Shown: positions 5,084 through 57,060, numbered from the stretch's first letter. The stretch is 64,000 bases of DNA from Candidatus Fermentibacterota bacterium (GCA_014728175.1 WJMA01000051.1:7279-71278); one strand, 5' to 3'. Notes: generated by a model not told the origin, from the letters alone. Numbers and translations are program-made.

Positions 5084-5157
5084 CAGCCTGTCCTCCCGTT
5101 CGTTCCTGCTAGTATATTCGCCCCGGGCGACCCATAGAAGCACCTGGCAGAGGTACA

Positions 5158-25140: not shown

Positions 25141-25317
25141 GGTTCCCCCATGGGTGAGGTACTTACTCGTCCTGTTTCTTCGGCGCAAACCGCGATAACA
25201 TAAGAAACAACCGGCTGCAGACGCTAACTCTGAACCGGAAGGGAGCTCGTCTTGCTGAACCGCGACCTGATCCGAAAGAACCTGGGAAGCTGTCTGACCG
25301 ATACGTCCGACCTGGGA

Positions 25318-26223
25318 ATGCCGGGGCTGAGGAAAGGTAAGGTCCGCGACGTTTACGACCTCGGGAACCGGCTTCTTATGGTGGCCACCGACAGGCAGAG
25401 CGCCTTCGACAGGGTGCTGGCCGCCGTACCTTTCAAGGGCCAGGTTCTCAACCAGGTCAGCGCTTTCTGGTTCGAAGAGACCGAGGACGTGGTTCCCAAC
25501 CACGTTATCTCGGCTCCCGACCCCAACGCGATGCTGGCCCGCAAGTGCGACGTCTACCCCGTCGAATTCGTGGTAAGAGGCTACATAACCGGCAGCACCA
25601 GCACTTCCGCCTGGACGCTCTACGAAAAGGGAGAGCGCAACTTATGCGGAAACGTCCTGCCCGATGGGCTGCGGAAGAACCAGAAGCTGCCCCGGCCGAT
25701 TCTGACTCCCACCACCAAGAGCGAGGAGCACGACGAGCCGGTAACCCCCGAGCAGATAGTACAGCGGGGGCTGATGGATCCCGAAGAGTGGAACCGGGCC
25801 TCCCGTACGGCCATGGCCCTGTACCGGAGGGGCGTGGAGATAGCCTCCCGCCACGGCCTCATCCTGGTGGACACCAAGTACGAGATGGGGCGCGATGATG
25901 AGGGCAGGTTGCGCCTGGTGGACGAGATCCACACCCCGGACTCTTCCCGCTACTGGATAGCCGAGAGCTACCGGGAGCGGTTCGACCAGGGGCTTAAGCC
26001 GGAGAACATAGACAAGGAGTTCCTCAGGCTGTGGTTCGTGGACCATTGCGACCCTTACGCCGACGAGGTCCTGCCCGAGCCGCCGGAGGATCTGGTGGTG
26101 GAGCTATCCTTCCGATACGTACAGCTCTACGAGATGATTACGGGCCGGGAGTTCCAACCCGCCGAGACCGAGGATCCGTTGGGAAGACTTCGCAGAAGCC
26201 TGGGTCGGGAGGGTCTTATCTAG
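25318..26223 (+). CDS. purC: Phosphoribosylaminoimidazole-succinocarboxamide (SAICAR) synthase
   Basis: KGKVRDVY and ATDRQSAFD motifs of PurC. The ATG at 25318 gives a typical N-terminus; an alternative TTG at 25252 is possible. Confidence 0.8.
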
Positions 26224-32908: not shown

Positions 32909-32986
32909 CGGGCCCCCAAAATCTTGTGGTACATATCTACAAGATTGGTATCCTATCTTACGGATCATCAAGCAACAAGCTCCGGA

Positions 32987-39155: not shown

Positions 39156-42100
39156 TCAGGCATCGTTTGCCGCCGGCCAATGGTCCGGCCACGGTACCTC
39201 ATCCCGGTCCACTTCCGAGTTCAGAAGTCCTTCACGCAGCAGGACTAGCTCCTCGAACTCGCTAGCTCCCAACTGAAACTCGCTTATCATATCACAGACT
39301 CGGCGGTAGCATTCTAGAGCCCGGGCGTGCCTTCCCTGAAGCAGATGCAGGTAGCCCATGCTGCCCATGGTGAGAGCCTCGCTCCTTCGGGCTCCAGTCT
39401 GCCTGGCGATTTCCAGCGCTTCTCGGCAGCAGCTCTCCGCTTCGTCCAGCCGGCCCTGTTTTCTTCGCAGTATCCCCAGATTGGCGTAGGTTATCCCCTC
39501 GCTGCTTCTGGCTCCGATCTCCCGGGCGATGCGGAGGGAGTCTCGATAATAGCTATCGGCCTCGGAGAGGCGGTCCTGCTTCATACACAGTGTCCCCAGG
39601 TTGCCCAAAGCGATGCCCTCGCCCTTCCTGTTTCCCACCTCCCGACGGATGGCCAGCGATTTGAGATGGCACTCCTCGGCCTTGGCGATTCGCCCCATCT
39701 GGTCGTAGAGGATTCCCATGTTGCCCAGGATGATTCCCTCTGCGCCGCGGGAGCCTATCTCCAGGGCTATTCGGAGTGCCTGGCCCAGGCGTTCCAGAGC
39801 GGTCTTGGGGCTACCGCGCTCGCGGTAAAGGTTGCCCAGATTACCGAGGATGGTGGCCTCGTCCCTTCGGCTTCCCATCTTTCTGGCCAGCTGGAGAGAT
39901 GCCTCGAAGCATCCGATAGCGTCCTCGAATCTTCCGCGATCCCGGTGCAGAATTCCCAGGTTGCCCAGGTTTCTCCTCTCGCTCCACTCGTCGCCCACCT
40001 CCCGGGCCATGCGCAGTGACCGGCTAACGCAACGCTCGGCGTCGTCCAGACGCCCATCCTGTCTGTGCACGGTGACCATGCCCCCTACGATCCTGCCCTC
40101 CAGGCGTCGTGCGCCGGCCGAGCGCACCAGCTCGAGGGCCCCCTCGTAAGCCTGCATGGCCTCTTGGGAGCGGCCGGTGTTCATCAGGAACCACCCCAGC
40201 CTTTCCCTCGCGTGGGCCCGGATCTCCTCGGCGCCGGAGGTGTCGGCCAGCCGGAGGGCCTTTCGGAGCTCGGATTCCTGCTCCGTCCTTCTTCCCTTCA
40301 GATCCAACGCATCCGCTTTGAGCAGCAGGACCTCGACCAGCAGCTCTCCCTTCGAACCGTCCTCGGGAGGTTCCTGCAACCATTCCTCCAGCTTCCCCGC
40401 CATATCCAGAGCCCCGTCCGCCTGGCTGTTTCTCGCCTGAAGCCTAAGAGAGGACATCCCCCACACCAGAGCTCTGTCGGTTCTGCCCGCCCTCTCCCAA
40501 TGGTAGGCCAGGGTTTCCGCCGCCTTCTCCCCCTCACCGCCTTGGATATCCTCGATGCATTCCGCCGCGGCGTGGTGCAGTATCGCCCTGTTTCTGTCCG
40601 TAAGGCTGCCGTAGGCGGTGTCGCGAAGCAGCAACTGCGTAAACCTGCACCTGCTCTCGAAGGCGCTGGTCTGCCGAGCCAAAAGATCCTTGTTCTCCAA
40701 TCCGGTCAGGGCCTCCCGCTCCGCTCTTCTTCCCACTACGCTCTCCGAGAGCATATCCAAAAGGGGCAGTGGGAATTCAACACCCAGGACCGAGGCCCTC
40801 TGTAGAACGTTTCGCCACGTTGTGGGTAGCCTGTCCAGGCGGGATTGAAGCAAACCGGCCAGCGAATCCGGAACGAACACCTCGTCCAGGGACCCGGTGG
40901 GCACCCATTTTCGCTCCACCGTCTCCACGGTCTGCGACTCGACCAGATCCATGACCATCTCCCTGAGGAAGTATGGATTTCCTCCGCTCTTTCGTAGCAC
41001 CAGGTCCAGGAGCCTATCCTCCATACCCTCGGAATCCGGATCGAGGAATTTGAGGACCTCCAGCAGAAGGTTCACGCAGGCCTTTCTCTCCAGGCGGCCC
41101 AACCTGATCTCGGCCAGCTCGGCGTAGCCGGGATGGATTTCTATTCGCACTGGCTCGCCGTTGTCCCTCTCCGGCCTGTAAAGAAGAACGAAGAGAATGC
41201 CCGGCCGGGTATCGCAATTCGCAACCACGAACTCCAGTACCTTGCGGCAGGTCTCCCCCATCCATTGAAGATCGTCCAGAACCAGGATGGTCCTTCGCGA
41301 GGAAGCCACCGATTCCACCAGGTCCCTCACCGCGGTGGTCGTCTCCAGGGCCAGAGCCCGGTCGTCGAGTCCCTCGATTCGGGGGTCCTTGGAATCGATT
41401 GACAGTATCCTGGCCAGAAACGGAGCGGACTGGATCAATCCCTCGTCGTTGGCCAGGGCGCCCACCCGGCGGCAGAGCTCGCCGTAATCCATACTCGGCA
41501 CATCGCCTTTGTATAGCAGGTTTTCGATCAACGTACGCCACAAGAAGTAAGGTGGTTGGGCGGAGGAACACGCCCTTCCCCAGAGAACCTGAATATCGCC
41601 GGAAGGGGAGCCGATCTCTTCCGTGAGCTCAGCCACCAGCCGCGACTTGCCCACGCCGGCTTCCCCGCTGATCCCCAACACGATGTGTCTGGCCCCGCCC
41701 CTGCGGTTGTTTCCTACGCCGCTCTCCTGTCTATGGAGGGCGTTACGCAACTCCTCCAGCTCCTCTTCTCTCCCCACGAACGGGCAGCTTCCAGCATCTC
41801 CCAAAACGACCGGGTCGGGGCCGGGCGAGTCGCCGGCCAGACTGTAGAACCTATTGGTGGGCGCGACATCGCAGGGCTCGAAACTAAAGCCTCCACCGCA
41901 GCCGCGGTACACGCTTTCGGTTACCAGCAGGCTCCCCTCACCGGTCGGATCGGCGAGATCCCTGGCTTCTCCAAGTATTCCCCCCCTGGTTATCGGATCG
42001 CCGGTCCCGTCGGTTACCACCTCTATCGGACCGGCCGAGGCTCCCATACCGAAATCGAGATCGATGCCCCTGGTAGAAAGCACCCGTCTCAGCTCCCTCA

Positions 42101-42875
42101 GGCCCTCGGCGAGCTTGACCGCGCTGCTCACCGCTCTGGAGCTGTCATCCTCCTTGGCCCTCTTTACCCCGAAGATGGACCGGAAATGCAGCGGCCCGGG
42201 CTTGGTGAGGTAACCACCGTAAGCTTCGACTACCCTGCGAACCATGGCCTCCACCGTATCCCGGACGCTCACCATCGCTCTCGGCAGCAGCGTTCCCCCC
42301 TGCTCGGTAAGTCCCGCCAGCCGCAGAGACAGAACGGCAACCCTTCGCCTTTCACCCGGCTGCAGCCTCGAGGTTCTCTCGGAGACAGCGTCTATGGTGC
42401 TCTCCAGCCTTCGTATATCCTCCTCCATCATCACCGAGAGGTTCGACAGATCGGCGGTTACGTTGGATACGGGAGAACCGAGCACCTCCAGGACCCCTTC
42501 CATGCACGATTCCAGGTCCTCCTCCAGCGCGTCATGCCATTGATGGGTAGATATGCAGTAGCGCATCCATTTGGAGAGCTCGACCTCTCCAATGCGGATC
42601 GGTACGATTGGGATGCCACAGCTTACCGCCTGCTCCAGCTCCCGTCTGACCTGGGGCGACCGGTTCGAGCTCTCCGAAAGCACCAGCAACAGTCTGGACG
42701 CGTTCTCTATGGCGTCCACTATGGCCGCCGCCCAGTCCGCTCCGGCCGGGATGTCCCTGGGAGCCATCCAGCAGGAGACGCCCCTGTCCTCCAGAAAATC
42801 CAGGATGCTGCCCGCCCGGTCAGCATCGGAGCTGGAATAGCTGACGAAAACCGCTCTCCCGGGCCTGCCGTTCAA
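39156..42875 (-). CDS. TIR domain - class III adenylyl/guanylyl cyclase domain - P-loop STAND/AAA NTPase - TPR repeat protein (1239 aa)
   Basis: The N-terminal TIR_2 domain matches VFVSYSSSD...CWMAPRDI...LVLSESSNRSPQVRREL with a candidate catalytic Glu. A cyclase-homology domain follows (RRVAVLSLRLAGLTE...). The Walker A motif is GISGEAGVGKSRL. About 400 aa of TPR repeats form the C-terminus. Confidence 0.75.
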   Translation of the reverse strand: MNGRPGRAVFVSYSSSDADRAGSILDFLEDRGVSCWMAPRDIPAGADWAAAIVDAIENASRLLLVLSESSNRSPQVRRELEQAVSCGIPIVPIRIGEVELSKWMRYCISTHQWHDALEEDLESCMEGVLEVLGSPVSNVTADLSNLSVMMEEDIRRLESTIDAVSERTSRLQPGERRRVAVLSLRLAGLTEQGGTLLPRAMVSVRDTVEAMVRRVVEAYGGYLTKPGPLHFRSIFGVKRAKEDDSSRAVSSAVKLAEGLRELRRVLSTRGIDLDFGMGASAGPIEVVTDGTGDPITRGGILGEARDLADPTGEGSLLVTESVYRGCGGGFSFEPCDVAPTNRFYSLAGDSPGPDPVVLGDAGSCPFVGREEELEELRNALHRQESGVGNNRRGGARHIVLGISGEAGVGKSRLVAELTEEIGSPSGDIQVLWGRACSSAQPPYFLWRTLIENLLYKGDVPSMDYGELCRRVGALANDEGLIQSAPFLARILSIDSKDPRIEGLDDRALALETTTAVRDLVESVASSRRTILVLDDLQWMGETCRKVLEFVVANCDTRPGILFVLLYRPERDNGEPVRIEIHPGYAELAEIRLGRLERKACVNLLLEVLKFLDPDSEGMEDRLLDLVLRKSGGNPYFLREMVMDLVESQTVETVERKWVPTGSLDEVFVPDSLAGLLQSRLDRLPTTWRNVLQRASVLGVEFPLPLLDMLSESVVGRRAEREALTGLENKDLLARQTSAFESRCRFTQLLLRDTAYGSLTDRNRAILHHAAAECIEDIQGGEGEKAAETLAYHWERAGRTDRALVWGMSSLRLQARNSQADGALDMAGKLEEWLQEPPEDGSKGELLVEVLLLKADALDLKGRRTEQESELRKALRLADTSGAEEIRAHARERLGWFLMNTGRSQEAMQAYEGALELVRSAGARRLEGRIVGGMVTVHRQDGRLDDAERCVSRSLRMAREVGDEWSERRNLGNLGILHRDRGRFEDAIGCFEASLQLARKMGSRRDEATILGNLGNLYRERGSPKTALERLGQALRIALEIGSRGAEGIILGNMGILYDQMGRIAKAEECHLKSLAIRREVGNRKGEGIALGNLGTLCMKQDRLSEADSYYRDSLRIAREIGARSSEGITYANLGILRRKQGRLDEAESCCREALEIARQTGARRSEALTMGSMGYLHLLQGRHARALECYRRVCDMISEFQLGASEFEELVLLREGLLNSEVDRDEVPWPDHWPAANDA

Positions 42876-43572: not shown

Positions 43573-44916
43573 CTATTGCGGACTATCCGGGACGGCCGCC
43601 GGCCGTAATCCTACGAAAGGATAGCCCATCTCCGACTCCAATACCAGCCGGCTGTCTACTCGGCACATGGAACTGTCGGAGATCCAGCTTCCTCCGGCGG
43701 CCAGTACCCTGGAGGTATCTTCCGGATCCACCACCATCTCCCATACGTTTCCCGCCATGTCGTAGATCATCCAGGGATTGGGAGGGAAGCATCCGGTGGG
43801 AGCGGTGATGGGGTAGCCATCGTCCAGACCTGGACACCTCTGCAGAATGGTCTCGCTGGAATCGGACAGGTTGAGCCTCCCTCCGGTGGGAGAGCAGTCG
43901 CCCCACGGGTAAGGGCCCCTTCTCCCGGCTCTCGCCGATACCTCCCACTGATGGATGGTAGGCAGATCGAACCGCAAGTCTGGCAGCCCCTGGGGAGGGT
44001 TCTCTGTAAGCCATTCACAGTAAAGCTCGGAGGCTTCTCGGGTCATGCCGACCGCCGGATGGTCCTCCAGGCCCTTTGCCGGGACGTACCCGGCGACGGA
44101 ATCGGCAAGGATGCCGATTCTCCAATCCACAGGGAACAGCCTCTCCATGAGCAGGGTGTAACCTTCCCTGCAGGTAGTGTCCCTTTCCATGTCCGGATCC
44201 ACGTCGGACAGGCACCTGCAGAACTGTCGGTTCGTCACCTCTCGCCGGGCTATGAAAAACGGCCGAAGCTCGACCCTTTCCAGGGCAGCCGGGGTCGTAT
44301 CCGAAGGCGATCGGGAGGAGACGTAGTAGGACCCTCCGGGGACCCGTACGAATCCTCCGTCGTGGGTGATTCGGGGAAGGACGTAGTTGTGGGTTCGCGG
44401 TCGGTTGGTGAGGAGGGTAACGCTGTCCAGCACCGAGATCCCGGAGGGCAGAGACAACAAAAGCTGGTGCGCACCGGGCCGGGAGACCTTCAACGAGACA
44501 GGGGTGGATCCGGACCGGACTCCGTTCAGATAGACAAAAGCCCCCGGGGGCTCGGAGACTACGTTCACCTCGAAGAGGTAAGGTAGCTCTATCGTGAGAC
44601 TGGCAGAATGCGGATGTACAACGGTATCGACCGGAACCCGGTTCGGGGCGGACAGGTTTACCGAGACGCCCTCCTGGGGTACGGGGATGACCGCCGGGGT
44701 GGAAAGACGCATCCCGTCGCCGGTGCGTACCGTGGCATCGGGAATGCAATAGACGGTCACCATTCTGACCGGCCAATCGGGAACCAGGATAAGCAGAAGC
44801 AAAATGGCCAGCAGAATAACTTCGCCAACCAGGAGAAGGTTGTCACCCAGCTTTCGGAGGATTGGCTGGATCAGCCCGACCAATCGTTGCTCAGTGCGGC
44901 CTTGAAGTCGTTCCAC
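43573..44916 (-). CDS. Formylglycine-generating enzyme (SUMF1/FGE) family protein with N-terminal TM and PEGA domain
   Basis: The FGE-sulfatase domain (RGGSW-like AAGGSW, YRxxxxP-like, CRVDSR) is C-terminal. A PEGA-like segment (EPPGAFVYLNGVRSGSTP) follows an N-terminal transmembrane helix. Confidence 0.6.
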   Translation of the reverse strand: MERLQGRTEQRLVGLIQPILRKLGDNLLLVGEVILLAILLLLILVPDWPVRMVTVYCIPDATVRTGDGMRLSTPAVIPVPQEGVSVNLSAPNRVPVDTVVHPHSASLTIELPYLFEVNVVSEPPGAFVYLNGVRSGSTPVSLKVSRPGAHQLLLSLPSGISVLDSVTLLTNRPRTHNYVLPRITHDGGFVRVPGGSYYVSSRSPSDTTPAALERVELRPFFIARREVTNRQFCRCLSDVDPDMERDTTCREGYTLLMERLFPVDWRIGILADSVAGYVPAKGLEDHPAVGMTREASELYCEWLTENPPQGLPDLRFDLPTIHQWEVSARAGRRGPYPWGDCSPTGGRLNLSDSSETILQRCPGLDDGYPITAPTGCFPPNPWMIYDMAGNVWEMVVDPEDTSRVLAAGGSWISDSSMCRVDSRLVLESEMGYPFVGLRPAAVPDSPQ

Positions 44917-46304
44917 AACTGCCCCATCCGCAGATCACGCCAGAACCTCTTCCAGACGTACGAGAACCGGAAGTAGAAACGGCGGTGGAACAGCGCGTAG
45001 CAATGGCGGATCGTTTTCCAATCCAGGTTCTCGTGCTGCCACACGTCGCTGGTGGAGTGGAAGTTATAACGGCTCCAGTCCTTAGAGAGTATCCTCCCGT
45101 CCCGCTCCACGAGCTTGTAAAGAGGTGAGGAGGGATAGGGAAGGGTCATGGTGGTCTTGGCGTAGGTGAGGGGAAGGCTGCGGGCGAACTCGATGGTCCG
45201 GCGCATGGTCTCCTCGGTCTCTCCGGGCAGGCCCATCATGAAGAAACCCACCGTCTCCAGGCCGGCGTCGTCAGCCATCTGGACCGCGTTCCTTATCTGC
45301 TCGGGGGTCTGGTCCTTGTTCACCCGGTGGAGTATCTCCGGAACTCCGCTCTCGATGCCGAAGGATATCTGGTAGCATCCGGCCGCCGCCGCCAGCTCGA
45401 AGAACTCCCTGTCCACATCCTCCACGTTCACCCCGGTAGGGAGAGCCCATGGGGCGGAGAAGCCCTTCTCCATCATCAGCCTGATCGTCTTCTTGGCGGT
45501 TTCGATGTCCGCGGTGAAGTTGTCGTCCTTTATGTGGATGTCACGGAAGCCCATATCCAGCATCCTGAACATCTCGTCCACTACCCGCTGCGGTGACTTC
45601 GAACGGACCTCGTGGCCGAAGATCCTCTGGCTGCAGTAAAGGCAATGGTGGTTGCATCCCCGGTTGGTCTCCATGTACCCTACGGGGTTGTCCCGACTGG
45701 CTATGTGCGGCGCCCGGTAGCGACTGAGGTCGTGCAGCTGCCAGGCCGGAAGGGGAAGGTCGTCGAGGTTCTCTATCAGCTTTCTGGGAGGGGTTTTCGT
45801 GAAATCGTCCCCCTTTCCGAAAGCTATGCCGTCGATCCTCTCCGGGTCGATGCCGCTGGCTATCTCCACCATGGTCCGCTCGCCCTCCCCCAGGCAGACC
45901 AGGTCGAAGTTGCCTTCCTCCAGGGACTCCCTGGGAAGAGTTGTGGGGTGGATACCTCCGGCTATGGTGGTTACCTCCGGCAGCGTCTCGTGCGCTATAC
46001 CGGCCAGATGTAGGGCCTCGTGGTACATGGGGGTGGCGAAGGTTATCCCCACGTAATGGGGCCGGAACTCCTTTAGCTGCTGCAGGTAAGCGTCCAGTGG
46101 ATGTTCCTCGACTATCAGGTCGAGTATCCTGACCTCGTGATCCTCTTCCAGCAGTGCGCCGGCAAGGCTGGCCAGAGCTATGAAGGGGGCCTTGGTCATG
46201 GCCACCTTCACCTTGCTCTTGCTGTAAAGGCCCAGCGCCGACGCCGGGTTCACCAGAAGAACTCTGCTCAAATCTCCCCGCCCTTCCGCATCAGGTGAGA
46301 ACAC
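44871..46304 (-). CDS. B12-binding domain radical SAM protein (class B), divergent member
   Basis: N-terminal B12-binding fold followed by a radical SAM domain with CNHHCLYCS; 477 aa. Confidence 0.75.
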   Translation of the reverse strand: MFSPDAEGRGDLSRVLLVNPASALGLYSKSKVKVAMTKAPFIALASLAGALLEEDHEVRILDLIVEEHPLDAYLQQLKEFRPHYVGITFATPMYHEALHLAGIAHETLPEVTTIAGGIHPTTLPRESLEEGNFDLVCLGEGERTMVEIASGIDPERIDGIAFGKGDDFTKTPPRKLIENLDDLPLPAWQLHDLSRYRAPHIASRDNPVGYMETNRGCNHHCLYCSQRIFGHEVRSKSPQRVVDEMFRMLDMGFRDIHIKDDNFTADIETAKKTIRLMMEKGFSAPWALPTGVNVEDVDREFFELAAAAGCYQISFGIESGVPEILHRVNKDQTPEQIRNAVQMADDAGLETVGFFMMGLPGETEETMRRTIEFARSLPLTYAKTTMTLPYPSSPLYKLVERDGRILSKDWSRYNFHSTSDVWQHENLDWKTIRHCYALFHRRFYFRFSYVWKRFWRDLRMGQLWNDFKAALSNDWSG

Positions 46305-46445
46305 TAGTCAAACCCCCATAATCAAACAAGGACCTCGGGGACGTTTTTCAAAATGCCAAAAACCCCGATGATTCCCGATGCCGAAACCAGCCCTCCCCTC
46401 GCACCGTACATTAATAGTACCAATTATGATAAAGGCTTAAAAGGT

Positions 46446-47987
46446 TTAGGAACGTCCCCGGTTGTGGATGCGGTTCAGGATCAGGGCGAAGCGCTCCTTC
46501 GCACCGCCCGTGTTCATCGCCTTCAGCAGCCCGTGGTACAGGGGATTCAGAAGGCGTATGAGGAACCTCAGAGGAGGAGTCTCCATGAGCTTGACCAGGG
46601 GCCGGAAGGAGAGAACCTTGAGAAGCCAGCCGGGAGCGCCCTTGTTCAGGAGGGTGAACAGAATGTTCACGTACCTGGCCTCCCGGTGGTGGTCCTCCTT
46701 CAGGTAGTGAGCCCTGGGGTCCTCTATCACTCCTTCCTCCAGGGCCTTTTTGTGGAGCTCGGTACCCGGGAAGTAGGTCAGGGAGAACAGTTGCAGCTTG
46801 CGGGGCTGCGGAAGCCGCATGGCCACCTCGAAGGTCCGTATTATTGAGTCCACGCTCTCGAAGGGGTTGTCCAGGATGATGTCGTAGGTGAGCTCGCAGG
46901 ATCCATCGGTCATCCGCTGCAGCTCCAGAGACCTTTCCACCAGCTGGTCCGGGGAAAAGTGTCCCCGCTTGTACAGCCTGTTGGTGCGGTCGGAAGCGGA
47001 CTGCAGACCCACCTCCGCTCTGTTAAGACCGGCCCTCAGCAAAGGCTGCAGCCTCTTCTCTATCATGTAGTCCTCCGTCAGAAGACAGAAGAAGGGCAGG
47101 CCTATCTCATCGCGGTACCTCTCGGTGAACGCCCTCAGGTCATCGAGCTTCACCGCCGCGAAGCAGTCGTCGACGAACACCAGGCGGTTGAACCAGGGGT
47201 ACATCTCCCTCATGGAAACCAACTCGGACATCAGGTGCTCCACGCTGCGCTTTCTGTAGAACCGCTCACCCTGGTAGAGCTCCAGCAGATAGTCGTTTAT
47301 GCAGAAGGAGCAGTGGTAGGGGCAGCCCCTGGTCCAGATCGTCTCGTAGACAACGCTGTCCGCCTCGTCGAAGTTGGAGCCCGCGGTCCAGAACTCCCTC
47401 ATAAGAAGCTCGGTCAGGGGAACTATCTCGTCGCCCAGCAGAACGTGGTGGTCGTCCAGGGAGTAATCCGGGGGAGGTACCGAGTCCAGATCGGATATCA
47501 GGGGGCGCAGGGGGTTCATAACCTCCCGCCCTTCCTTCCTGACCATCATGTTGGGGACGTCGAGAGGCCTCTCTTCCTCCTCCAGACGCCCGGCGAGCTC
47601 CAACAGGGCCTCCTCGCCCTCTCCTACGCAGACGTAGTCGGCATGCTCCAGGCACTCCTCCGGAGACACGGTTGGATGGACCCCGCCCCAGACCACCGGA
47701 ACGGAGATCCTCTCCCTCACCCTGTCGGTCAGGTCACCGACTTTATGGAAATAATTGGTCGCCAGGGAGAATCCGACCAAACCCGCGTCCTGGCACAGCT
47801 CTACCAGCTGATCGACCGCCCGGTCGGGGTAGTTGCCCACGAAGTCTACGCCGTTGGTGGCCATGGACACTACGTCCGGCATGAACACCAGCCTGGTGGA
47901 GTGTCCCTTCCTCTTCAGATATGAGCTGAGCACGCGAATGCCCAGAGTTGTGAGCTGGGAATAGGGAGAGACGAGCACGATCCTCAC
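46446..47987 (-). CDS. B12-binding radical SAM protein, tandem paralog 1
   Basis: MRIVLVSPY... B12 domain plus TRGCPYHCSFCIN; 513 aa. About 60% identical to the next two genes. Confidence 0.8.
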   Translation of the reverse strand: MRIVLVSPYSQLTTLGIRVLSSYLKRKGHSTRLVFMPDVVSMATNGVDFVGNYPDRAVDQLVELCQDAGLVGFSLATNYFHKVGDLTDRVRERISVPVVWGGVHPTVSPEECLEHADYVCVGEGEEALLELAGRLEEEERPLDVPNMMVRKEGREVMNPLRPLISDLDSVPPPDYSLDDHHVLLGDEIVPLTELLMREFWTAGSNFDEADSVVYETIWTRGCPYHCSFCINDYLLELYQGERFYRKRSVEHLMSELVSMREMYPWFNRLVFVDDCFAAVKLDDLRAFTERYRDEIGLPFFCLLTEDYMIEKRLQPLLRAGLNRAEVGLQSASDRTNRLYKRGHFSPDQLVERSLELQRMTDGSCELTYDIILDNPFESVDSIIRTFEVAMRLPQPRKLQLFSLTYFPGTELHKKALEEGVIEDPRAHYLKEDHHREARYVNILFTLLNKGAPGWLLKVLSFRPLVKLMETPPLRFLIRLLNPLYHGLLKAMNTGGAKERFALILNRIHNRGRS

Positions 47988-48040
47988 GGGAACAACCCCC
48001 GAAAACAGTCGAGCGGGCGCTATGCCCGCAATTTCGTGGC

Positions 48041-48070
48041 ATTATGTGCCCGCCGCGGAGCGGACGTCAA
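48041..48070 (-). promoter_or_regulatory. Sigma70-like promoter TTGACG-18nt-CATAAT for rSAM paralog 1
   Basis: The reverse complement of 48041-48070 reads TTGACGtccgctccgcggcgggcaCATAAT. It lies ~55 nt upstream of the start at 47987. Confidence 0.45.
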
Positions 48071-49611
48071 GGAAGCTCGTCCGCCTCCTCCATGTTCTCG
48101 AAGATCCGGGTGAAGTTCTCCTTGGCCCAGGCTCGCCGTGCTCTCCTTATCCTCTTCCAGACAATGGGCTGCAGACGGTTGAACAGGAAGCGGAAGGGTG
48201 GAGATTCCATTAGGTACACCAGGGGAGGGAAGGACAGGATCCTGAAGAGCCACGTAGGAATCTTTCTGTTGAGCAGCACGAAGAGGAAATTGATGTACCT
48301 GGCCTCCCGCTTCTCGTTGTCCTTGAGGTAATGCACTCTGGGATCCTCTATTGTTCCATCCTCCAGAGCCTTCCGGTGCAGCTCTATGCCCGGATAGAAG
48401 GTGAACGAGAACAGATGGAGCCACTTGGGCTCCGGGAGCTTCGCGGCCAGGCGGAGGGTCTTCAGATGGTCGCTCACGGTCTCGTACGGGTTGTCCAGAA
48501 TGATGTCGTAGTTTATACGTGCCCTTCCCCCGGATAGATCGGCGAAATCGAGCGTCCGCTCGACGAACTGGTCGGACGAGAAGTGCTTCCTCCTGTAAAT
48601 CTCGTTCATTCTCGGCGATGCGGTCTGCAGCCCCATCTCCACCATTCTCAGGCCGGCATCCAGCAGGGGCTCCACTCTGGGCGGCACCATGTAGGAATCC
48701 GTGAACAGTGTGAAAAACGGCTTGTCTATCTCAGCCTTGTACCGCTGCGAGAATTTCCTGAGCTCCTCGGGCTTTGCGGCTGTGAAGCAGTCGTCCGTGA
48801 AGACCACGTGGGTGAACCAGGGGAACCTCTCCTTTATATGGCTCAGCTCTGACATCAGATGGTCCACGCTTCGCCTGCGGAAGTAGCTCTCCCCCTTGTA
48901 GAGGTGGAGGAGGTGGTCGTTTATGCAGAACGAACAGTGGTAGGGGCAGCCCCTGGTGTACTGGGTCTCGTAGATGATGTCGTTCTCGCATTCGAAGTAG
49001 GAGCATGCGGTCCAGTACTTTCTCATGAGGGACTCGGTAAGGGGCTTTATGGTGTCGCCCACCAGAACGTGGTGGTCATCAAGCGAGTAATCGGGTATGG
49101 GCACGGTGTCGAGATTCTCGATCAGCGGGTGGAGGGGATTTCTTGCCACCTCGCCGCCGGACCTGGACCAGGTGTTGGGCACGTCTGTGGGACACTCTTC
49201 GATCTCGAGGCGGTTTGCAAGCTCCAGCAAGGCATCCTCGCACTCTCCCAGGCAGACGTAGTCGGCGTAGTCCAGGCATTCCTCAGGGGAGACTGTCGGA
49301 TGCGCGCCTCCCCAGACCACCGGAATGGATAGTCTCTCCCTAAGCGCCTTGCTAAGCTCTGACACCTTGTAGAAGTAATTGGTCATCAGTGAGAAGCCCA
49401 CCAGGCCGGCGTCCTGGCAAAGCTCGATGAGCTGCTCGTCCACACCCTCGGGATAGCTGGCCGAAAAATCGCTGCAGGAAGAAATAATCGACCTTACGTC
49501 GGGCAGAAACACCAGTCTCGTACTGTGTCCGTTCTTCCTCAGATACGAGCTGAGACAGCGCACGCCCATGGATGCAAGCTCGATGTAGGGCGAAACCAGA
49601 ACAACCTTCAT
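48067..49611 (-). CDS. B12-binding radical SAM protein, tandem paralog 2
   Basis: MKVVLVSPY... plus TRGCPYHCSFCIN; 514 aa. Confidence 0.8.
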   Translation of the reverse strand: MKVVLVSPYIELASMGVRCLSSYLRKNGHSTRLVFLPDVRSIISSCSDFSASYPEGVDEQLIELCQDAGLVGFSLMTNYFYKVSELSKALRERLSIPVVWGGAHPTVSPEECLDYADYVCLGECEDALLELANRLEIEECPTDVPNTWSRSGGEVARNPLHPLIENLDTVPIPDYSLDDHHVLVGDTIKPLTESLMRKYWTACSYFECENDIIYETQYTRGCPYHCSFCINDHLLHLYKGESYFRRRSVDHLMSELSHIKERFPWFTHVVFTDDCFTAAKPEELRKFSQRYKAEIDKPFFTLFTDSYMVPPRVEPLLDAGLRMVEMGLQTASPRMNEIYRRKHFSSDQFVERTLDFADLSGGRARINYDIILDNPYETVSDHLKTLRLAAKLPEPKWLHLFSFTFYPGIELHRKALEDGTIEDPRVHYLKDNEKREARYINFLFVLLNRKIPTWLFRILSFPPLVYLMESPPFRFLFNRLQPIVWKRIRRARRAWAKENFTRIFENMEEADELP

Positions 49612-49661
49612 AGGCGAAAACCCCGCGGCGGAATCTAAGGATGCCTGAAATTCCCCTTCGG

Positions 49662-49690
49662 GATTATTTACTTGCTGCCATTATACGTCA
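49662..49690 (-). promoter_or_regulatory. Sigma70-like promoter TTGACG-17nt-AATAAT for rSAM paralog 2
   Basis: The reverse complement reads TTGACGtataatggcagcaagtaAATAAT. A TATAAT copy directly abuts the -35 element. Confidence 0.4.
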
Positions 49691-49723
49691 AGGAAATACC
49701 GCTGAGACCCCGCTGAATAAGCA

Positions 49724-51303
49724 TCAGGCAGGCGTATCGGCCTTGCTCTCGACATCCGCAGAGCTCTCCGTCCGACGCGGCGATCCCTCGTCCAGCATGC
49801 CGGCGAAGTTCTGCTCGGCCCATCTTATCCGGTCGGCGCGCAGCATTCTCCAGTACAGAGGCTTGAGAAGACCGAACAGGAACCGAAAGGGCGGGGACTC
49901 CATCAACCGTACCCATGGCTTGAAGGCCAGGATCTTGAGCATCCATCGGGGTACGCCCTTGTTTAGAAGAGTGAACAGGAAATTTACGTAGCGGGCCTCG
50001 CGGTGATGGTTGTCCTTCGTATAGTGAACTCTGGGGTCCTCAATTGTTCCGTCCGCCAGGGCTTTCCGATGCAGCTCTATGCCCGGATAGAAGGTGAACG
50101 AGAACAGGTGGAGCTTCTTGGGCGGGGGCAGCCTTTCCGCAAGCCATAGGGTCTTGAGCAGGGCGTCGACGTCGTCGTAGGGATTGTCCAGAATGATGTC
50201 GTATATGATCGGAACCTCGCCCTCGGTCAGCTCCGTGAACCGCCTGGCCCTTCTCAGAATCCTCTCCGGGGAAAAGTGCGGCCTTCTGTACAGCCGGTTG
50301 GTTCTGTCGTCTGCCGACTGCAAGCCCACCTCCACTATCTGCATCCCGGCTTTCTTCAACGGCTCTATCCTTTCGTCCACCATGTACGTATCCGTGAACA
50401 GGCAGAAGAAGGGAACCCCTATCTCCTCCCTGTAGCGCTGGGCGAAATGCTGCAGCTGCTCGACCGGGTTCGCCGTGAAGCAGTCGTCGGTGAATACGAT
50501 GTTGTTGAACCATGGGAAGCGCTCCCTGATGGATGTAAGCTCCGTCATCAGGTGGTCGACGCTCCGCCTGCGGAAGAACCTCTCCTCACCGTACAGGCCC
50601 AGGAGGTATCCGTTGATGCAGAACGAGCAGTGGTAGGGGCAGCCCCTGGTCCACATGGTCTCGTATATGACCTCGTCGGGCTGGTCGAAGTAGGAGCAGG
50701 CCGTCCAGAACGTCCGCATCAGGGACTCGTCCAGGGGGACTATCCGGTCCCCGAGGAGAACGTGGTGATCCTGCAGCGAGTAATCGAGTTGGGGCAGAGA
50801 GTCCAGATCGATTATTAGAGGCTTCAGCGGGTTGCGGACCACTTTCCCGTCGACCAGGTTGAGCATGTTGCCCACGTCCTTGGGGTTCTCTCCCTTCTCC
50901 AGCCTGTCCGCCAGCTCCAGAATGGAGTCCTCTCCCTCTCCCACGCAAACGTAGTCGGCGTACTCCAGGCATTCCTCCGGCGATATGGTGGGGTGAACGC
51001 CTCCCCAGACTACGGGCACGGATAGCCTTTCCCGCACCGTCCTGCTCAGCTCTGCGACCTTGAAAAAGTAGTTCGTGGACAGGGAGAACGCCACCAGGTC
51101 GGCATCGGTGCAGAGATCCACCAACTGCTCGTCCACCCCTTCCGGGTACGGCTGGGCGTAGTCGGAGCCCTTGTCTCTGGTGGAGATTACGTCCGGCAGG
51201 AAAATCAGCCTGGTTCGATGGCCGTGGGCCTTTAGATAGGCACCTATAGACCTCACCCCGATCGATGTAAGCTGGGCGTAGGGTGAGATGATCGCGACGA
51301 GCA
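49724..51303 (-). CDS. B12-binding radical SAM protein, tandem paralog 3
   Basis: MLVAIISPY... plus TRGCPYHCSFCIN. The start was trimmed to MLVAII (~51303). Confidence 0.8.
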
Positions 51304-51357
51304 TTTGGCTCCCCCCGGAAACTAAGACGGACGGGCCTTCACCCACTATGGTTTGGC

Positions 51358-51387
51358 CATTATACGAGCCCCGTTAACAAGCCGTCA
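51358..51387 (-). promoter_or_regulatory. Sigma70-like promoter TTGACG-18nt-TATAAT for rSAM paralog 3
   Basis: The reverse complement reads TTGACGgcttgttaacggggctcgTATAAT, ~55 nt upstream of the ATG, with a GGGGGAG Shine-Dalgarno. Confidence 0.45.
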
Positions 51388-51396
51388 AGTAAGCGT

Positions 51397-52219
51397 CTAT
51401 GCACTCTTTTCGGTGCTACGCCGATCCGAATCGAGACCCATAGCCAAAGCCCAGGACAAGGCCAGAAGGCAAACCGTAAGAACCGGGGAGGACTCCGGTC
51501 CGAAGCCGGCCCACAGAGGATTTCTCTGGCTGAGAACGGAGGGCAGCTGGAAGCCGCTCACCCTCCAACCCAGCACCATTCCGGTGGTCAGGTTCCAGCC
51601 GTAGTGAACCAGGATGGGAGCGATTATTCCGCCACTGGCCATTCTGAGCAGACACAGCAACACTCCGAACAGACCTATGTTGACTACCGCCAAAGGCCCG
51701 GCCCCCGGATTTGCGGAGTGAGCGACGGCGAACAGCAGGGAAGACAACCCAATTCCGATGTACGACCGGCCACAGAAGCTCAAGGTGTCCAGGAAGTACA
51801 GCCTGAACACGATCTCCTCCGCGGAGGCGGCCAGGATCAAGGCCAGAGCGGCGACCAGCCATTTCCCGGGCAGCGCGGTACCCAGGCTGGGATTCCCGAG
51901 CGTGGAGACGTAGACGAAGGGCAGCAGCAGGGCCGCGGCCGAGAGCAGGATCAGGTCCGGGTTCCGCAGCCGCCATCTTCCGAATACCGGGTGCACGCAA
52001 AGCAGGAAGGGCAGTAGAAGGGTAGAAGCGGCCATTCCCCCCAGGGCGGCCCGGACCAGAAAGTCGTCGCTGCCGGCCAACCGGGCAAAGAGATCGCTGG
52101 CACAGCTCCACGTGAGCACCCCTGAGAGAAGAACCAGCCTGGTGGCTACATCCTTCAATCGGTGGCCGGCAGCGCAGGTATCGGCGTCCGTCAACTCCTC
52201 AGATGGAAAGGCCTGGAAC
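51397..52219 (-). CDS. CPBP family intramembrane glutamic endopeptidase (CAAX protease/Abi-like)
   Basis: EEIVFR (EExxxR), FAVAHS (FxxxH) and HYGWN motifs within a multi-helix membrane protein. The start was taken at MFQAF. Confidence 0.65.
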
Positions 52220-54161
52220 ATCTGATGATCTCCATGAAGCTCTCCGCCTCGAGGCTGGCCCCGCCCACCAGTACGCCGTTGACGTGGGGCTGGCTGAGTA
52301 TCTCGAAAGCGTTCTTCGGCTTCACGCTTCCCCCGTAGATTATCCGCAGTGAAAGCGCTTCCCTGGTACCGGTCAGCTCCTCCACCCAGCCCCGTATCAA
52401 TCCGTGCACTCTGTTGGCTTCCTCGGCGGTGGCGGTTTTGCCCGTACCGATGGCCCACACCGGCTCGTAGGCGATTGCCAGGTTGAACGGGTTCCAGCAG
52501 TCCAGGTTCTCCAGGGCTGCCAGGACTTGACCTCTCACCACCTCCTCGGTGCGGTCGGCTTCCCGTTCCTCCAGGAGCTCGCCCACGCACAGAACGCCTC
52601 TCAACCCGTACCTGAGCCCGGCCTCCAGTTTCCTGGCCACCGTCTCGTCGTTCTCACCCAGCACGTGCCGGCGCTCGCTGTGGCCGGCCAGGAACCAGCA
52701 ACCACCCGCGTCGGCTATCATCCCCGGGCTAACCTCGCCCGTATAGGCTCCCTGGAGCTCGTAGTAAATGTCCTGGGCGCCGGTCTGCACCCCAGTCTCC
52801 CATGCGGGTCGGGAGAGCTCCGACAACAGGGTGAAGGAGGGGAACAGCACCACCTCCGCGGCCTCCGAGGGAACCATCTCCTCGTCCAGGCTTCGGAGGA
52901 AGCTCCGGGCGTGGGAGGGGTCGCCGTTCATCTTCCAGTTGCCCCCGATCAGTGGTCGCAGAGGCGGAGGGTTTTCGCTCAGAGGATGCAGAGCGACGAG
53001 CTGCTCACCCTTCAGCAGGGTCAGGGACGCTCCTCCGCCGGTGGAGACGAAGCTGACGGAGTCGGCTCTACCGGCCTCCGCCACCGCTCTGGCCGAATCG
53101 CCGCCTCCCACCAGGGTAGTGGCGCCCTTTTCCGTAGCCCTGGAAAGGGACTCCGCCATGGCCCTGGTCGCCTTGTCGAAGGGAGGGACCTCGAACATTC
53201 CCATGGGCCCGTTCCAGATCACGGTTCCACTCTCCATGATCAGCCCGTCGAACTCCTCGACGGTCCTCTCTCCCACGTCCAGGCCGGCCGCGTCCTCCGG
53301 CATCTCCGAGGAGTCGACCGTGGTCGCCCGGGAAGGCTCCTCCGCCGACGGGGCCACCACTACGTCCGAAGGAAGAACCAGCCTGGTTCCCTCTGACTCG
53401 GCCATCTCCATTATCCTCCCGGCCGTATCCACGCTGTCCTCCTCCAACAGGCTCCGCCCGACTTCCAGGCCCTTCGCTCTGAGGAAGGTGAATGCCATGG
53501 CCCCTCCGACCAGCAGGTTGTCGACCCGGGGTATGAGATTCTCCATCACCTCGACCTTGTCGGAAACCTTGGCCCCGCCCATCAGCAGCGTAACCGGGGC
53601 CTCGGGCTCGGTGGTCGCCTTCTCGAAGGCGGACAGCTCCTTCTCCACCAGCATCCCGATGTAGCCTCCGCCCATTGCCTCGGGTACTCCGTGCATCGAG
53701 GCATGCTTCCGGTGGCAGGTGGCGAAGGCGTCGTTCACGTAGACGTCCACCAGGGAAGCCAGCTTCCGGGCGAACTCCCGGTCGTTGGCCTTCTCTCCCT
53801 CCCGGAAGCGGAGGTTCTCCAGCAGGATTACCTGGCCCGGCCTCATGCCCGCGACCATGCTCTTCACCCTCTCTCCCACGCAGTCGGGCGCGAACAGAAC
53901 GGGCACTCCCAGGATGCCCGATATCCGCCGGGCCACCGGAACCAGGCTGAGCTCCGGATCAGGCCGGCCCCCGGGCCGCCCCAGATGGCTGGCCAGTACG
54001 ACTATGCCTCCACCCGCGATCAACCTGTGCAGGGTGGGCAACATGGCCGTGATTCGGGTATCGTCAGCTACCTTGCCGTTTTTCAGTGGAACGTTGAGGT
54101 CGGCCCTGAGGAAGACCCTTCTTCCCGCGACGTCCGCGTCCCTTACGGATGCGTACCTCAC
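52191..54161 (-). CDS. pgk-tpiA: Phosphoglycerate kinase - triosephosphate isomerase fusion protein
   Basis: The PGK part (RVFLRADLNVP...GGGAS) is continuous in frame with the TIM part (IGGNWKMNG...). A GTG start at ~54161 (VRYASV) overlaps the gap stop; the ATG at 54233 would overlap gap by 75 nt. Confidence 0.75.
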   Translation of the reverse strand: MRYASVRDADVAGRRVFLRADLNVPLKNGKVADDTRITAMLPTLHRLIAGGGIVVLASHLGRPGGRPDPELSLVPVARRISGILGVPVLFAPDCVGERVKSMVAGMRPGQVILLENLRFREGEKANDREFARKLASLVDVYVNDAFATCHRKHASMHGVPEAMGGGYIGMLVEKELSAFEKATTEPEAPVTLLMGGAKVSDKVEVMENLIPRVDNLLVGGAMAFTFLRAKGLEVGRSLLEEDSVDTAGRIMEMAESEGTRLVLPSDVVVAPSAEEPSRATTVDSSEMPEDAAGLDVGERTVEEFDGLIMESGTVIWNGPMGMFEVPPFDKATRAMAESLSRATEKGATTLVGGGDSARAVAEAGRADSVSFVSTGGGASLTLLKGEQLVALHPLSENPPPLRPLIGGNWKMNGDPSHARSFLRSLDEEMVPSEAAEVVLFPSFTLLSELSRPAWETGVQTGAQDIYYELQGAYTGEVSPGMIADAGGCWFLAGHSERRHVLGENDETVARKLEAGLRYGLRGVLCVGELLEEREADRTEEVVRGQVLAALENLDCWNPFNLAIAYEPVWAIGTGKTATAEEANRVHGLIRGWVEELTGTREALSLRIIYGGSVKPKNAFEILSQPHVNGVLVGGASLEAESFMEIIRCSRPFHLRS

Positions 54162-55174
54162 AGGCCTTTGCCCAACATGTACCGGGCCATGTCCACCATC
54201 CGGGCCGCATAGCCATACTCGTTGTCGTACCAAGAGAGTACCTTGACCAAGCCGCCGTCCATGACCCGAGTCATCTCCGCGTCGAATATCGAGCTGCGGG
54301 CGTCACCCACTATATCGGTGGACACCAGGGGCTCCTCACTGTAGCCCAGGATGCCCTGGAGCGGGCCCTCGGCCGCGGTTCTCATAGCCGAGTTCACCTG
54401 GTCGACCGTGACGTCCTTCTCCAGCTCGCAGACCAGGTCCACCAGCGAGCCGTCCGTCAGCGGTACCCTGGCCGCCATACCGTCGAGCCTTCCGTTGAGC
54501 TCGGGAATGACCAGACCCACCGCCTTCGCCGCGCCGGTGGTGGTGGGAACCAGGTTCACCGCCGCCGCCCGGCCCCGTCTGAGGTCCTTGTGGGGGAGGT
54601 CGAGAATATTCTGGTTGCTGGTGTAGGCGTGGATGGTGGTCATTATCCCCCTGCGGATACCGAACCTGTCGTGGAGAACCTTGGCCACCGGGACCAGGCA
54701 GTTGGTCGTGCAGCTGGCCGTAGACAGCACCGTATGGCTGCCGGGGTTGTAAAGTTCGTGGTTGACCCCGTAGACCACGGTCAGATCGGCCCCCTCTTCG
54801 CCCTTGGCCGGGGCGCTGAGGAGGATCTTTGCCGCGCCGGCCTGGAGATGCTTGGCCGCCTTGTCCCTGGTTCTGAAAAGCCCCGTGGACTCGATCACTA
54901 TGCCCACGTCCATCTCCTCCCAGGGTAGCTTGGAGGGATCCGGCTCGGAGAGCACCTTCACCGATTCGTCTCCGGTGGTAATCACATCGCCCTCCAGGAC
55001 CACCTCACCGGGGAACTTGCCGTGAACCGAGTCGTACCTGAGCAGATAGGCCAGGGTGGCGGGATCGGTAATGTCGTTGACCGCCACCACGTCTATATCA
55101 CCGGTCCTCAGAGCGTGCCTGTAGACCAACCTTCCTATTCTACCGAAACCGTTTATAGCGACTTTTGTACCCAT
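54158..55174 (-). CDS. gap: Glyceraldehyde-3-phosphate dehydrogenase
   Basis: NGFGRIGR Rossmann motif, ASCTTNCL active site and WYDNE; 338 aa. Confidence 0.95.
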   Translation of the reverse strand: MGTKVAINGFGRIGRLVYRHALRTGDIDVVAVNDITDPATLAYLLRYDSVHGKFPGEVVLEGDVITTGDESVKVLSEPDPSKLPWEEMDVGIVIESTGLFRTRDKAAKHLQAGAAKILLSAPAKGEEGADLTVVYGVNHELYNPGSHTVLSTASCTTNCLVPVAKVLHDRFGIRRGIMTTIHAYTSNQNILDLPHKDLRRGRAAAVNLVPTTTGAAKAVGLVIPELNGRLDGMAARVPLTDGSLVDLVCELEKDVTVDQVNSAMRTAAEGPLQGILGYSEEPLVSTDIVGDARSSIFDAEMTRVMDGGLVKVLSWYDNEYGYAARMVDMARYMLGKGL

Positions 55175-56256: not shown

Positions 56257-57060
56257 TCAACGCTCGATAGTATCGCTGTTGATGTGTTCTCTGATCCATT
56301 CGTCCAGTCGATGCACCTTGTCCGCTATGGCTTCGAAATCGACCACGGAAAGGGACTGGCCCCCGTCGGAGAGAGCCTTGTCCGGATCGGGATGCACTTC
56401 CAGCATTAACCCGTCGGCTCCGGCTCCGATGGCCGCCAGGGATAGGGGCTCCAGAAGATCCCTGCGCCCGGACGAATGGCAGGGATCGACCACCACCGGA
56501 TACCCGCCCATGCCCCTGACCAGAGGCACCGACGAGATATCGAGGGTGGCCCTGGTCCAGGGCTCGAAGGTGCGGATGCCCCTCTCGCACAGGACCACCT
56601 GCTCGTTGCCCTCCTTTACCACGTACTCCGCCGCCATGAGCCACTCCTCGACCGTGGCCATGAACCCCCGCTTCAGAAGGACGGGAACGCCCGCTCTGCC
56701 CACGGCGGACAGCAGGGTGAAGTTGTGCATGTTGCGGGCACCGATCTGGAACATGTCTATGTACTCCAGGGCGGGCTCGATCTGGTCGACGGCCATCACC
56801 TCGCTTACCACCGGCATGCCCTGCTCCCGTCTTACCTTATCCAGCATCCGGTAGCCTTCCACCCCCAGACCCTGGAAGGAGTAGGGGGAGGTCCGGGGCT
56901 TGAAGGCTCCGCCCCTCAGCATATCCGCACCACCGGCCCTGGCGGCCCCGGCAACGGTCTGCAGCATCTGAAGTCCCTCTACGGCGCACGGCCCGGCGAT
57001 GAGAACGGTTCTGTCCCCCCCGAACACCACGTTACCGACTTTCACCTCTCTGACCGTCAA
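56257..57060 (-). CDS. aroF: 3-deoxy-7-phosphoheptulonate (DAHP) synthase, class I-beta (unfused)
   Basis: LIAGPCAVE and RGGAFKPRTSPYSFQGLG motifs. The KDO8P synthase alternative is disfavoured by the PC and KPRTSPYSFQG signatures. Confidence 0.7.
   Translation of the reverse strand: MTVREVKVGNVVFGGDRTVLIAGPCAVEGLQMLQTVAGAARAGGADMLRGGAFKPRTSPYSFQGLGVEGYRMLDKVRREQGMPVVSEVMAVDQIEPALEYIDMFQIGARNMHNFTLLSAVGRAGVPVLLKRGFMATVEEWLMAAEYVVKEGNEQVVLCERGIRTFEPWTRATLDISSVPLVRGMGGYPVVVDPCHSSGRRDLLEPLSLAAIGAGADGLMLEVHPDPDKALSDGGQSLSVVDFEAIADKVHRLDEWIREHINSDTIER

Follow-up and report, generated by a model that had tools for sequence, protein, structure and literature searches.

Three tandem class B radical SAM genes of a large family, and a divergent fourth, in a Candidatus Fermentibacteria locus: a possible role in lipid or glycolipid modification

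Background

Among the known enzymes with which those considered here were compared, several act on the tetraether lipids of archaea: Grs makes rings, Gmm, Cgm, and Pgm methylate, and Ted desaturates (PMC11214058; bioRxiv 10.1101/2025.10.20.683597). Cgm and Ted are reported to be peripheral membrane proteins that are bound through the C-terminus (bioRxiv 10.1101/2025.10.20.683597), and within the Gmm/Cgm/Pgm/Ted clade identities of 31-34% with E values of 1e-60 to 1e-72 have been reported (PMC11214058; bioRxiv 10.1101/2025.10.20.683597). The paralogs GrsA and GrsB differ in regiospecificity, C7 versus C3 (Zeng et al. 2019; reviewed in PMC13459092). Thus Grs, a B12-type radical S-adenosylmethionine (SAM) enzyme working on lipid tails, offers through the regiospecificity of its paralogs a model for a paralog array. 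Such an array of three tandem genes (G, F, and E, in order of transcription), together with a divergent fourth gene (D) that follows it, is the subject of this report. It lies on the minus strand of contig WJMA01000051.1, from a metagenome-assembled genome (MAG) of Candidatus Fermentibacteria, and all positions are those of the 64,000-nucleotide (nt) stretch of this contig that was analysed (the window).

49724-51304, minus strand: paralog G, a 526-residue class B radical SAM protein (Pfam and alignment)
48067-49611, minus strand: paralog F, a 514-residue class B radical SAM protein (Pfam and alignment)
46446-47987, minus strand: paralog E, a 513-residue class B radical SAM protein (Pfam, alignment, and structural model)
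44871-46271, minus strand: D, a 466-residue class B radical SAM protein of a BchE/HpnJ/Ted-like subgroup (Pfam, NCBIfam, and comparison with Ted)

Most class B radical SAM enzymes, whose reactions at unactivated carbons are difficult ones, are without an assigned function. The family to which E, F, and G belong is large and almost confined to uncultured anaerobes, and the Fermentibacteria trio provides a compact test set, with three diverged, intact copies that each have a predicted promoter; the same locus without them, in Candidatus Fermentibacter daniensis, serves as a natural control. As it stands, this is an ordinary enzyme family without assignment and with a tidy evolutionary history.

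The four radical SAM proteins

A first-pass annotation of this DNA had proposed three paralogous class B radical SAM genes plus a divergent fourth, all intact, and the Pfam matches, the motifs, and the ratios of nonsynonymous to synonymous divergence (dN/dS) agree with it. Domains were called with Pfam at the family cut-offs, and subfamilies with curated NCBIfam equivalog models at their own cut-offs. In D, E, F, and G the B12-binding domain (PF02310) scores 59-71 bits against a cut-off of 32.1, and the Radical_SAM domain (PF04055) scores 51-88 bits against a cut-off of 29.5. The cluster motif is CPYHCSFC in E, F, and G and CNHHCLYC in D, with CxxxCxxC invariant in the alignment; E, F, and G also have TRGCPYHCSFCIN in common. 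At the DNA level the three genes are tandem copies spaced 1624 and 1693 nt apart, whose products are mutually 58-63% identical, and D is 26% identical to them. The annotation had suggested looking for a missing B12-binding fold or for disrupted motifs; the three paralogs pass PF02310, keep CxxxCxxC, and have intact frames. Of 54 columns with a conservation of 90% or more in the family, E keeps 54, F 52, and G 51, and dN/dS relative to orthologues is 0.10 for E, 0.18 for F, and 0.135 for G. All four proteins are intact and, to judge from their sequences, under purifying selection. E is 100% identical to an NCBI entry ("radical SAM protein [Candidatus Fermentibacteria bacterium]"); for F, a look-up by exact sequence returned no record.

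The structure of E was predicted with AlphaFold2 (pLDDT 95.3, pTM 0.93) and compared with solved structures by Foldseek. The model overlays the cobalamin domains of MgmA, TsrM, TokK, and MetH, and it matches MgmA, TsrM, CysS, AprD4, TokK, and OxsB with E values of 1e-18 to 1e-15. Each of the four proteins comprises a cobalamin-binding Rossmann domain, a radical SAM barrel with the CxxxCxxC motif, and a C-terminal helical tail. However, the solved class B enzymes MgmA (9ccb), AprD4 (6fd2), CysS (9n1b), TsrM (6wte), TokK (7kdx), and OxsB (5ul2) are only 14-20% identical to E, and sequence matches between PDB chains and E, F, or G are marginal. The last ~100 residues of E, F, and G (helices 439-512 of the E model) have no counterpart in the solved class B structures. 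In addition, the family has roughly 18-40 extra residues of its own between the cobalamin domain and the cluster motif, where D shows an 18-column gap. What the solved enzymes act on (a protein, an aminoglycoside, a carrier-bound acid, tryptophan, and a carbapenam) is no guide for E, F, and G.

Comparison with lipid-modifying enzymes

Gmm, Cgm (Saci_1785), Pgm, and Ted are like E, F, and G in size (about 500-610 residues), in having a C-terminal region that binds, or in E, F, and G is predicted to bind, the membrane, and in the frequent occurrence of several paralogs in one genome or cluster. Their reactions take place at inert carbons of lipids. However, they are archaeal, whereas the host here is a bacterium; no lipid data for Fermentibacteria were found in the literature. 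The reference for Ted was an open reading frame (ORF) on a Guaymas metagenome contig (L010:6080-7924), whose ends fit both published cloning primers. An adjoining radical SAM ORF (L010:4337-6052) was taken as a putative Grs from the published statement that ted adjoins a grs gene. The published primer for Cgm of S. acidocaldarius had no match in the metagenomes searched.

D is 27% identical to Ted over 450 residues, with a pairwise E value of 9e-53, which is borderline relative to the values reported within the Ted clade and can be likened to the reported level of similarity between Ted and Gmm. D and Ted also share the same weak HpnJ/BchE profile pattern. The best profiles for D, both below threshold, are BchE (TIGR02026; 180 bits versus 481) and HpnJ (TIGR03471; 179 versus 578); HpnR (TIGR04367) scores 104 versus 650. 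E, F, and G stay below the cut-offs of all NCBIfam models; they score highest with TIGR04072 (67-98 bits), TIGR04013 (75-89), and HpnJ (67-80), against cut-offs of 251-578. The analogy with HpnR drawn in the first-pass annotation does not hold for E, F, and G (33-35 bits versus 650), nor does that with enzymes of the PoyB/C type (TIGR03975; 36-48 bits for E, F, and G and 85 for D versus 281.85). No bacteriochlorophyll, hopanoid, ladderane, or fatty-acid synthesis genes (ACP, FabF, and FabZ were looked for) are adjacent in the neighbourhood of the array.

The E/F/G family

A profile built from 72 sequences retrieves 12,521 family members at E≤1e-30, counted as representatives of 50%-identity clusters, and more than 150 full-length matches lie below 1e-138. 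The taxa named here are a sample rather than a census: among the matches listed, there are members from Fermentibacteria, delta-proteobacterial and Thermodesulfobacteriota MAGs, Nitrospirae/Nitrospinae, Anaerolineales, UBP4, Omnitrophota, Candidatus Magnetominusculus, and a "Thermoplasmata archaeon," nearly all of them uncultured.

Metagenome contigs with relatives were fetched and numbered (L001 and so on); about 85 of these loci entered the neighbourhood comparison, and 18 of them are termed core loci. Many family members are solitary genes or lie in paralog arrays without conserved biosynthetic neighbours, which fits action on a common cell component. In other phyla, members of several deep subfamilies occur together in one array: L007 combines three such subfamilies, and L009, L011, and L021 combine two each. 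All-versus-all clustering of 3,113 ORFs from 85 loci revealed no conserved neighbour; the sole apparent one was an antisense ORF of the family gene itself and was set aside as an artefact. A Pfam tally of the 98 neighbours in core loci revealed no enriched family.

A possible role in lipid modification

The tails of these proteins suggest a place of action. The last 85 residues of E, F, and G have a net charge of +5 to +10 and are rich in hydrophobic residues; the rest of each protein has a net charge of -19 to -24. The tails of E and F contain amphipathic helices that are among the strongest in the whole protein, and the C-terminus of D is an aromatic/basic amphipathic helix, RRFYFRFSYVWKRFWRDLR. 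Gene neighbourhoods point in the same direction. An LpxL-type acyltransferase and a second B12 radical SAM protein are encoded beside family members in three unrelated loci (L009, L021, and L040). In L009 and L040 the module also includes a SPASM radical SAM protein, and L012 and L040 have an adjacent gene for a phytoene-desaturase-like flavoprotein. The partners look orthologous: between L009 and L040 the LpxL-like proteins are 31% identical (E 9e-53) and the SPASM proteins 32% (E 1.5e-55), and the second B12 radical SAM proteins of L021 and L040 are 33% identical (E 8e-83). The module looks like an undescribed lipid or glycolipid modification cluster. It spans L009:1606-9284, L040:7980-16355, and L021:98-10983, and in L040 the family gene appears to be split (7980-8903 and 8936-9487).

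Tentatively, then, E, F, G, and D may be enzymes of the peripheral-membrane type, with lipid or glycolipid chains as the target of methylation or of another modification. In such a scheme, each enzyme would bind a [4Fe-4S] cluster and cobalamin and would generate a 5'-deoxyadenosyl radical from SAM. At the cytoplasmic face of the membrane, the radical would take a hydrogen from an unactivated carbon of a hydrophobic substrate, for which membrane lipids or glycolipids, with their acyl or alkyl chains, are the likeliest candidates. A methyl group would then most likely be passed from methylcobalamin to the substrate; ring closure or desaturation, as in archaeal Grs and Ted, would be the alternative chemistry. 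The three paralogs would differ in position or substrate, so that a single molecule could be modified by them in turn. Should the substrate be a membrane lipid, the family would supply a missing piece in the account of lipid-tail methylation and remodelling by anaerobic bacteria, with a bearing on biomarkers such as branched glycerol dialkyl glycerol tetraethers, known as brGDGTs.

Several observations weigh against a lipid substrate. The lipid link comes from 3-4 of the 18 core loci, and glycan genes adjoin other core loci (L022, L021, L007, L013, and L008). The best structural match, MgmA, modifies a protein, and the literature yielded no characterised bacterial member of the family. E is 25% identical to Ted over 360 residues (E 2e-18), and the profile comparison (hhalign, 4.5e-30) leaves the C-terminus uncovered; the putative Grs matches the E/F/G profile in the radical SAM core only (hhalign E 9e-8 over 170 columns), with a non-significant BLASTP E value of 0.017. 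Because the match to Ted is at this level and that to the putative Grs is confined to the core, the alignments place E, F, and G outside both the Grs and the Gmm/Cgm/Pgm/Ted clades. The match of E, F, and G to TIGR04072 ("lipid biosynthesis," ladderane-type), in two fragments and against a cut-off of 360 bits, is no better than for any class B enzyme; Ted scores the same (98 bits). Finally, methylation is not separable from other chemistry by sequence, and membrane association is likewise predicted from sequence.

A bolder form of the proposal is doubtful, namely that the family is the machinery that methylates, cyclises, or desaturates mid-chain carbons of membrane lipids in anoxic bacteria, for example adding the extra methyl groups of branched or "overly branched" GDGT-type lipids. 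If this were true, the paralogs would set the methylation positions that are used by palaeoclimate proxies.

History of the array

In a neighbour-joining tree E, F, and G form one lineage-specific clade, (E,(G,F)), and their sequences place the origin of the paralogs in duplication within this lineage. Orthologues of all three are present in L001, the near-identical counterpart of the window locus (G 93% and F 93% identical), and those of G and F only in L090 (91% and 89%). The synonymous divergence (dS) between the window and L001 differs along the locus, being 0.23 for G and 0.21 for F versus 0.78 for E, 0.58 for D, 0.88 for PFK, and 0.69 for GAPDH. Nucleotide identity to L001 in a sliding window is likewise raised over one tract:

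47815-51113: tract of raised identity to L001, containing most of G, all of F, and the 5' end of E (sliding identity)

Within this tract identity is 0.91-0.96, except for one 300-nt bin of 0.87 over the G-F spacer, versus 0.78-0.88 in the flanks. Furthermore, a 3.3-kb G-F block in L090 (L090:2404-5692) has 89% nucleotide identity to the window in an unrelated context. Because dS is ~0.2 for this pair versus 0.6-0.9 in the flanking genes, and because the 89% copy lies in an unrelated context, the comparison indicates that G and F constitute a two-gene cassette that has recently moved or recombined between lineages.

D has another history. Its orthologues are 60-74% identical in Fermentibacteraceae, Aegiribacteria, and Ca. 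F. daniensis; D has been kept across the phylum, whereas the E/F/G clade has few close relatives. In the window two further genes flank the array and D:

51397-52221, minus strand: CPBP/Rce1-like glutamic intramembrane protease (PF02517, 64.3 bits versus a cut-off of 22.4)
43573-44916, minus strand: membrane-anchored protein with PEGA and FGE-sulfatase domains (PF08308, PF03781), whose ORF overlaps the end of D

In the Ca. F. daniensis locus (L093) the gene order is SPFH, AMP ligase, DAHP synthase-like, PFK, GAPDH, PGK, TIM, CPBP, D, PEGA/FGE, AMP ligase, ..., flippase, ..., GyrB. The window is collinear with this order, but L093 lacks E, F, and G: CPBP and D overlap by 4 nt, and FGE starts 2 nt past D. 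Relative to L093 the window has two insertions, a 5.1-kb E/F/G array between CPBP and D, and a TIR/histidine-kinase block after FGE. CPBP and FGE lie beside relatives of E, F, and G in L001 only and in none of the other fetched loci. Thus, CPBP-D-PEGA/FGE is a unit of long standing in Fermentibacteria that closes a string of glycolytic genes, and the E/F/G trio is a later, lineage-specific 5.1-kb insertion. Because L093 has CPBP, D, and FGE without E, F, and G, and because the only array with CPBP and FGE at its side elsewhere is the near-identical L001, these two genes are partners of D, not of the array. The first-pass annotation had read CPBP and FGE/PEGA as functional flanks of the array, and the flippase and the acyl-CoA ligase as part of its context. 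Neither view survives the comparison with L093, where CPBP and FGE/PEGA stand beside D without E, F, and G; the flippase and ligase belong to the same ancestral synteny, 10-15 kb away.

The three genes of the old unit are tightly packed in at least three Fermentibacteria genomes (window 43573-52221; L093:8189-11707). In L094 the D orthologue follows another B12 radical SAM gene instead, and CPBP and FGE are absent. The second insertion contains genes for a TIR-AAA_16(STAND)-TPR protein (39156-42875) and a TPR-histidine kinase-receiver hybrid (36460-38955), both absent in Ca. F. daniensis; in L001 two TIR-STAND-TPR paralogs occupy the place of this block, which may be a defence or signalling module.

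Predicted promoters of G, F, and E

Upstream of each of the three paralogs lies a match to a sigma-70 promoter that is conserved in L001.

51359-51388, minus strand: sigma-70-like promoter upstream of G, TTGACG-18-TATAAT (11/12)
49663-49691, minus strand: sigma-70-like promoter upstream of F, TTGACG-17-AATAAT
48041-48070, minus strand: sigma-70-like promoter upstream of E, TTGACG-18-CATAAT

Three such matches in 283 nt of spacers compare with 0.036 expected (Poisson P ~8e-6), and each of G, F, and E is thus predicted to carry its own sigma-70-like promoter. An Rfam scan of the window gave no match, and the folds of the 5' untranslated regions are no more stable than shuffled controls; therefore, no riboswitch is present. 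A terminator scan of the window remained at background level.

Other possible substrates

Glycans at the cell surface, or lipid-linked sugars, might instead be what the paralogs modify. They could, for example, C-methylate the sugars of a capsule, of an O-antigen-like polymer, or of a glycoprotein, with the three copies giving variant decorations. This is the main rival of the lipid reading; we consider it unlikely, but with some evidence in its favour. Genes for GT2, NmrA/epimerase, and MFS proteins lie beside a family member in L022, and those for an epimerase, a polysaccharide deacetylase, a glycosyl hydrolase, and a DUF4015 protein in L013. PMT_2 is found in L021 and L007 and GT4 in L008, and NAD-epimerases recur near more distant cousins (10 loci). 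Recent lateral exchange, as seen for the G-F cassette, is typical of surface-structure genes, and in L090 and L092 the relatives are followed by genes resembling those for sulfotransferases or sulfatases. However, the window, L001, L003, and L005 have no adjacent glycan gene, and no glycan family is enriched among the 98 core-locus neighbours. The basic amphipathic tail also suits a substrate embedded in the membrane better than a sugar nucleotide in solution; a polyprenol-linked sugar would be compatible with it. The lipid or glycan substrate that had been proposed in the first-pass annotation is plausible.

It is improbable that the enzymes carry out C-methylation or another radical modification of a specific protein after translation, as Mmp10 and MgmA do on methyl-coenzyme M reductase. 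E resembles MgmA at the level of the general fold (18-20% identity), and it resembles AprD4, CysS, and TsrM just as much; TIGR04014 (cut-off 360) scores 22-25 bits for E and G and has no listed match for F. The vicinity holds no conserved gene that would be a candidate target, and three diverged paralogs, as well as arrays of several subfamilies, would be unusual for a single protein site.

Tailoring of a small molecule or cofactor (a tetrapyrrole, a phosphonate, or a secondary metabolite), as by BchE, PhpK, or GenK, is likewise given little credence. Class B radical SAM enzymes are common in small-molecule pathways, and the best sub-threshold profiles for D are indeed BchE and HpnJ. However, scores are 3- to 20-fold under the family cut-offs, and no polyketide synthase, nonribosomal peptide synthetase, sugar, phosphonate, or tetrapyrrole core genes adjoin the array in the window or its relatives.

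Very improbable, finally, is the suggestion of the first-pass annotation that the array methylates a ribosomally synthesised and post-translationally modified peptide (RiPP) iteratively, with CPBP as the processing protease: CPBP proteases lie in the vicinity of some bacteriocin loci, proteusin systems use several class B methylases, and L090 has a PqqD, radical SAM, and ScmC-like set 5 kb from its G-F pair, but CPBP is the ancestral partner of D, older than the array and present without E, F, and G in Ca. F. daniensis, the window's locus lacks a precursor, an RRE/PqqD recognition domain, a leader peptidase, and an ABC exporter, and most family members are solitary genes. The ApyD profile scores 35-53 bits for E, F, and G and 111 for D against a cut-off of 750. 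As the annotation had noted, there is no precursor peptide; the spacers hold promoters and no conserved small ORF. One ORF of 33 residues (46322-46423), the sole one in the 79-141-nt spacers, was rejected as a precursor, since L001, which has indels in this spacer, does not conserve it. By their sequences, E, F, and G do not point to a peptide antibiotic, and a RiPP role is unlikely.

The PqqD-like, radical SAM, and weak ScmC-like genes of L090 (L090:10986-13533), ~5 kb downstream of the G-F pair, may form a RiPP cluster, which is absent from the window. A sulfatase gene follows a close relative of E, F, and G in L092 (3988-6960), and a weak sulfotransferase-like gene is present in L090 (6024-7037). 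In the window, an APS kinase is encoded ~20 kb away (24517-25503), and the gene for the FGE-domain protein follows D. These neighbours may hint at sulfated molecules or may be coincidental.

Other features of the locus

On the minus strand the order of transcription is SPFH/zinc-ribbon, AMP-ligase, DAHP/KDO8P-synthase-like, PFK, GAPDH, PGK-TIM, CPBP, G, F, E, D, PEGA/FGE, TIR-AAA-TPR, and TPR histidine kinase. The genes ahead of CPBP are as follows.

58739-59881, minus strand: SPFH/zinc-ribbon protein
57064-58818, minus strand: AMP-ligase
56257-57060, minus strand: DAHP/KDO8P-synthase-like protein
52191-54233, minus strand: fused PGK-TIM, which follows PFK and GAPDH and precedes CPBP

The CPBP gene starts either with an ATG at 52221, which gives a 31-nt overlap with the pgk-tpi stop, or with a GTG at 52119. 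Its product is 67% identical to the L001 orthologue and 40% identical to that of Ca. F. daniensis, in a conserved position, and reaches the cut-off of none of the NCBIfam equivalogs (MrtS, MrtJ, and others). The PEGA/FGE protein has an N-terminal hydrophobic segment that is visible in the translation, and scores 111.6 bits for PF03781 (cut-off 23.3) and 34.3 for PEGA (cut-off 20.8). It is far under the cut-offs of the GldK, PvdO, and SenA equivalogs, and its orthologue directly follows D in L001 (67% identity) and L093 (39%).

PGK and TIM are one fused protein of 680 residues in the window and in L001; in L093 they are encoded separately with a 4-nt overlap. The AMP-dependent ligase (57064-58818) has a weak chorismate-mutase-like segment at its C-terminus (CM_2, 21.5 bits, below the cut-off), and its pairing with the DAHP/KDO8P-synthase-family gene upstream of the glycolytic genes is kept in L001 and L093. 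For gene 31844-32971, a sugar amidotransferase in the first-pass annotation, Pfam gives no match at E≤1e-4; its product is 72% identical to the Ca. F. daniensis counterpart, which adjoins the flippase. Lastly, a radical SAM-SPASM protein of 504 residues is encoded ~40 kb from the array (2353-3867), between two genes for M20-family peptidases (753-2261 and 3869-5461), and is 28% identical (E 2e-30) to the SPASM radical SAM protein of the L009 cluster.

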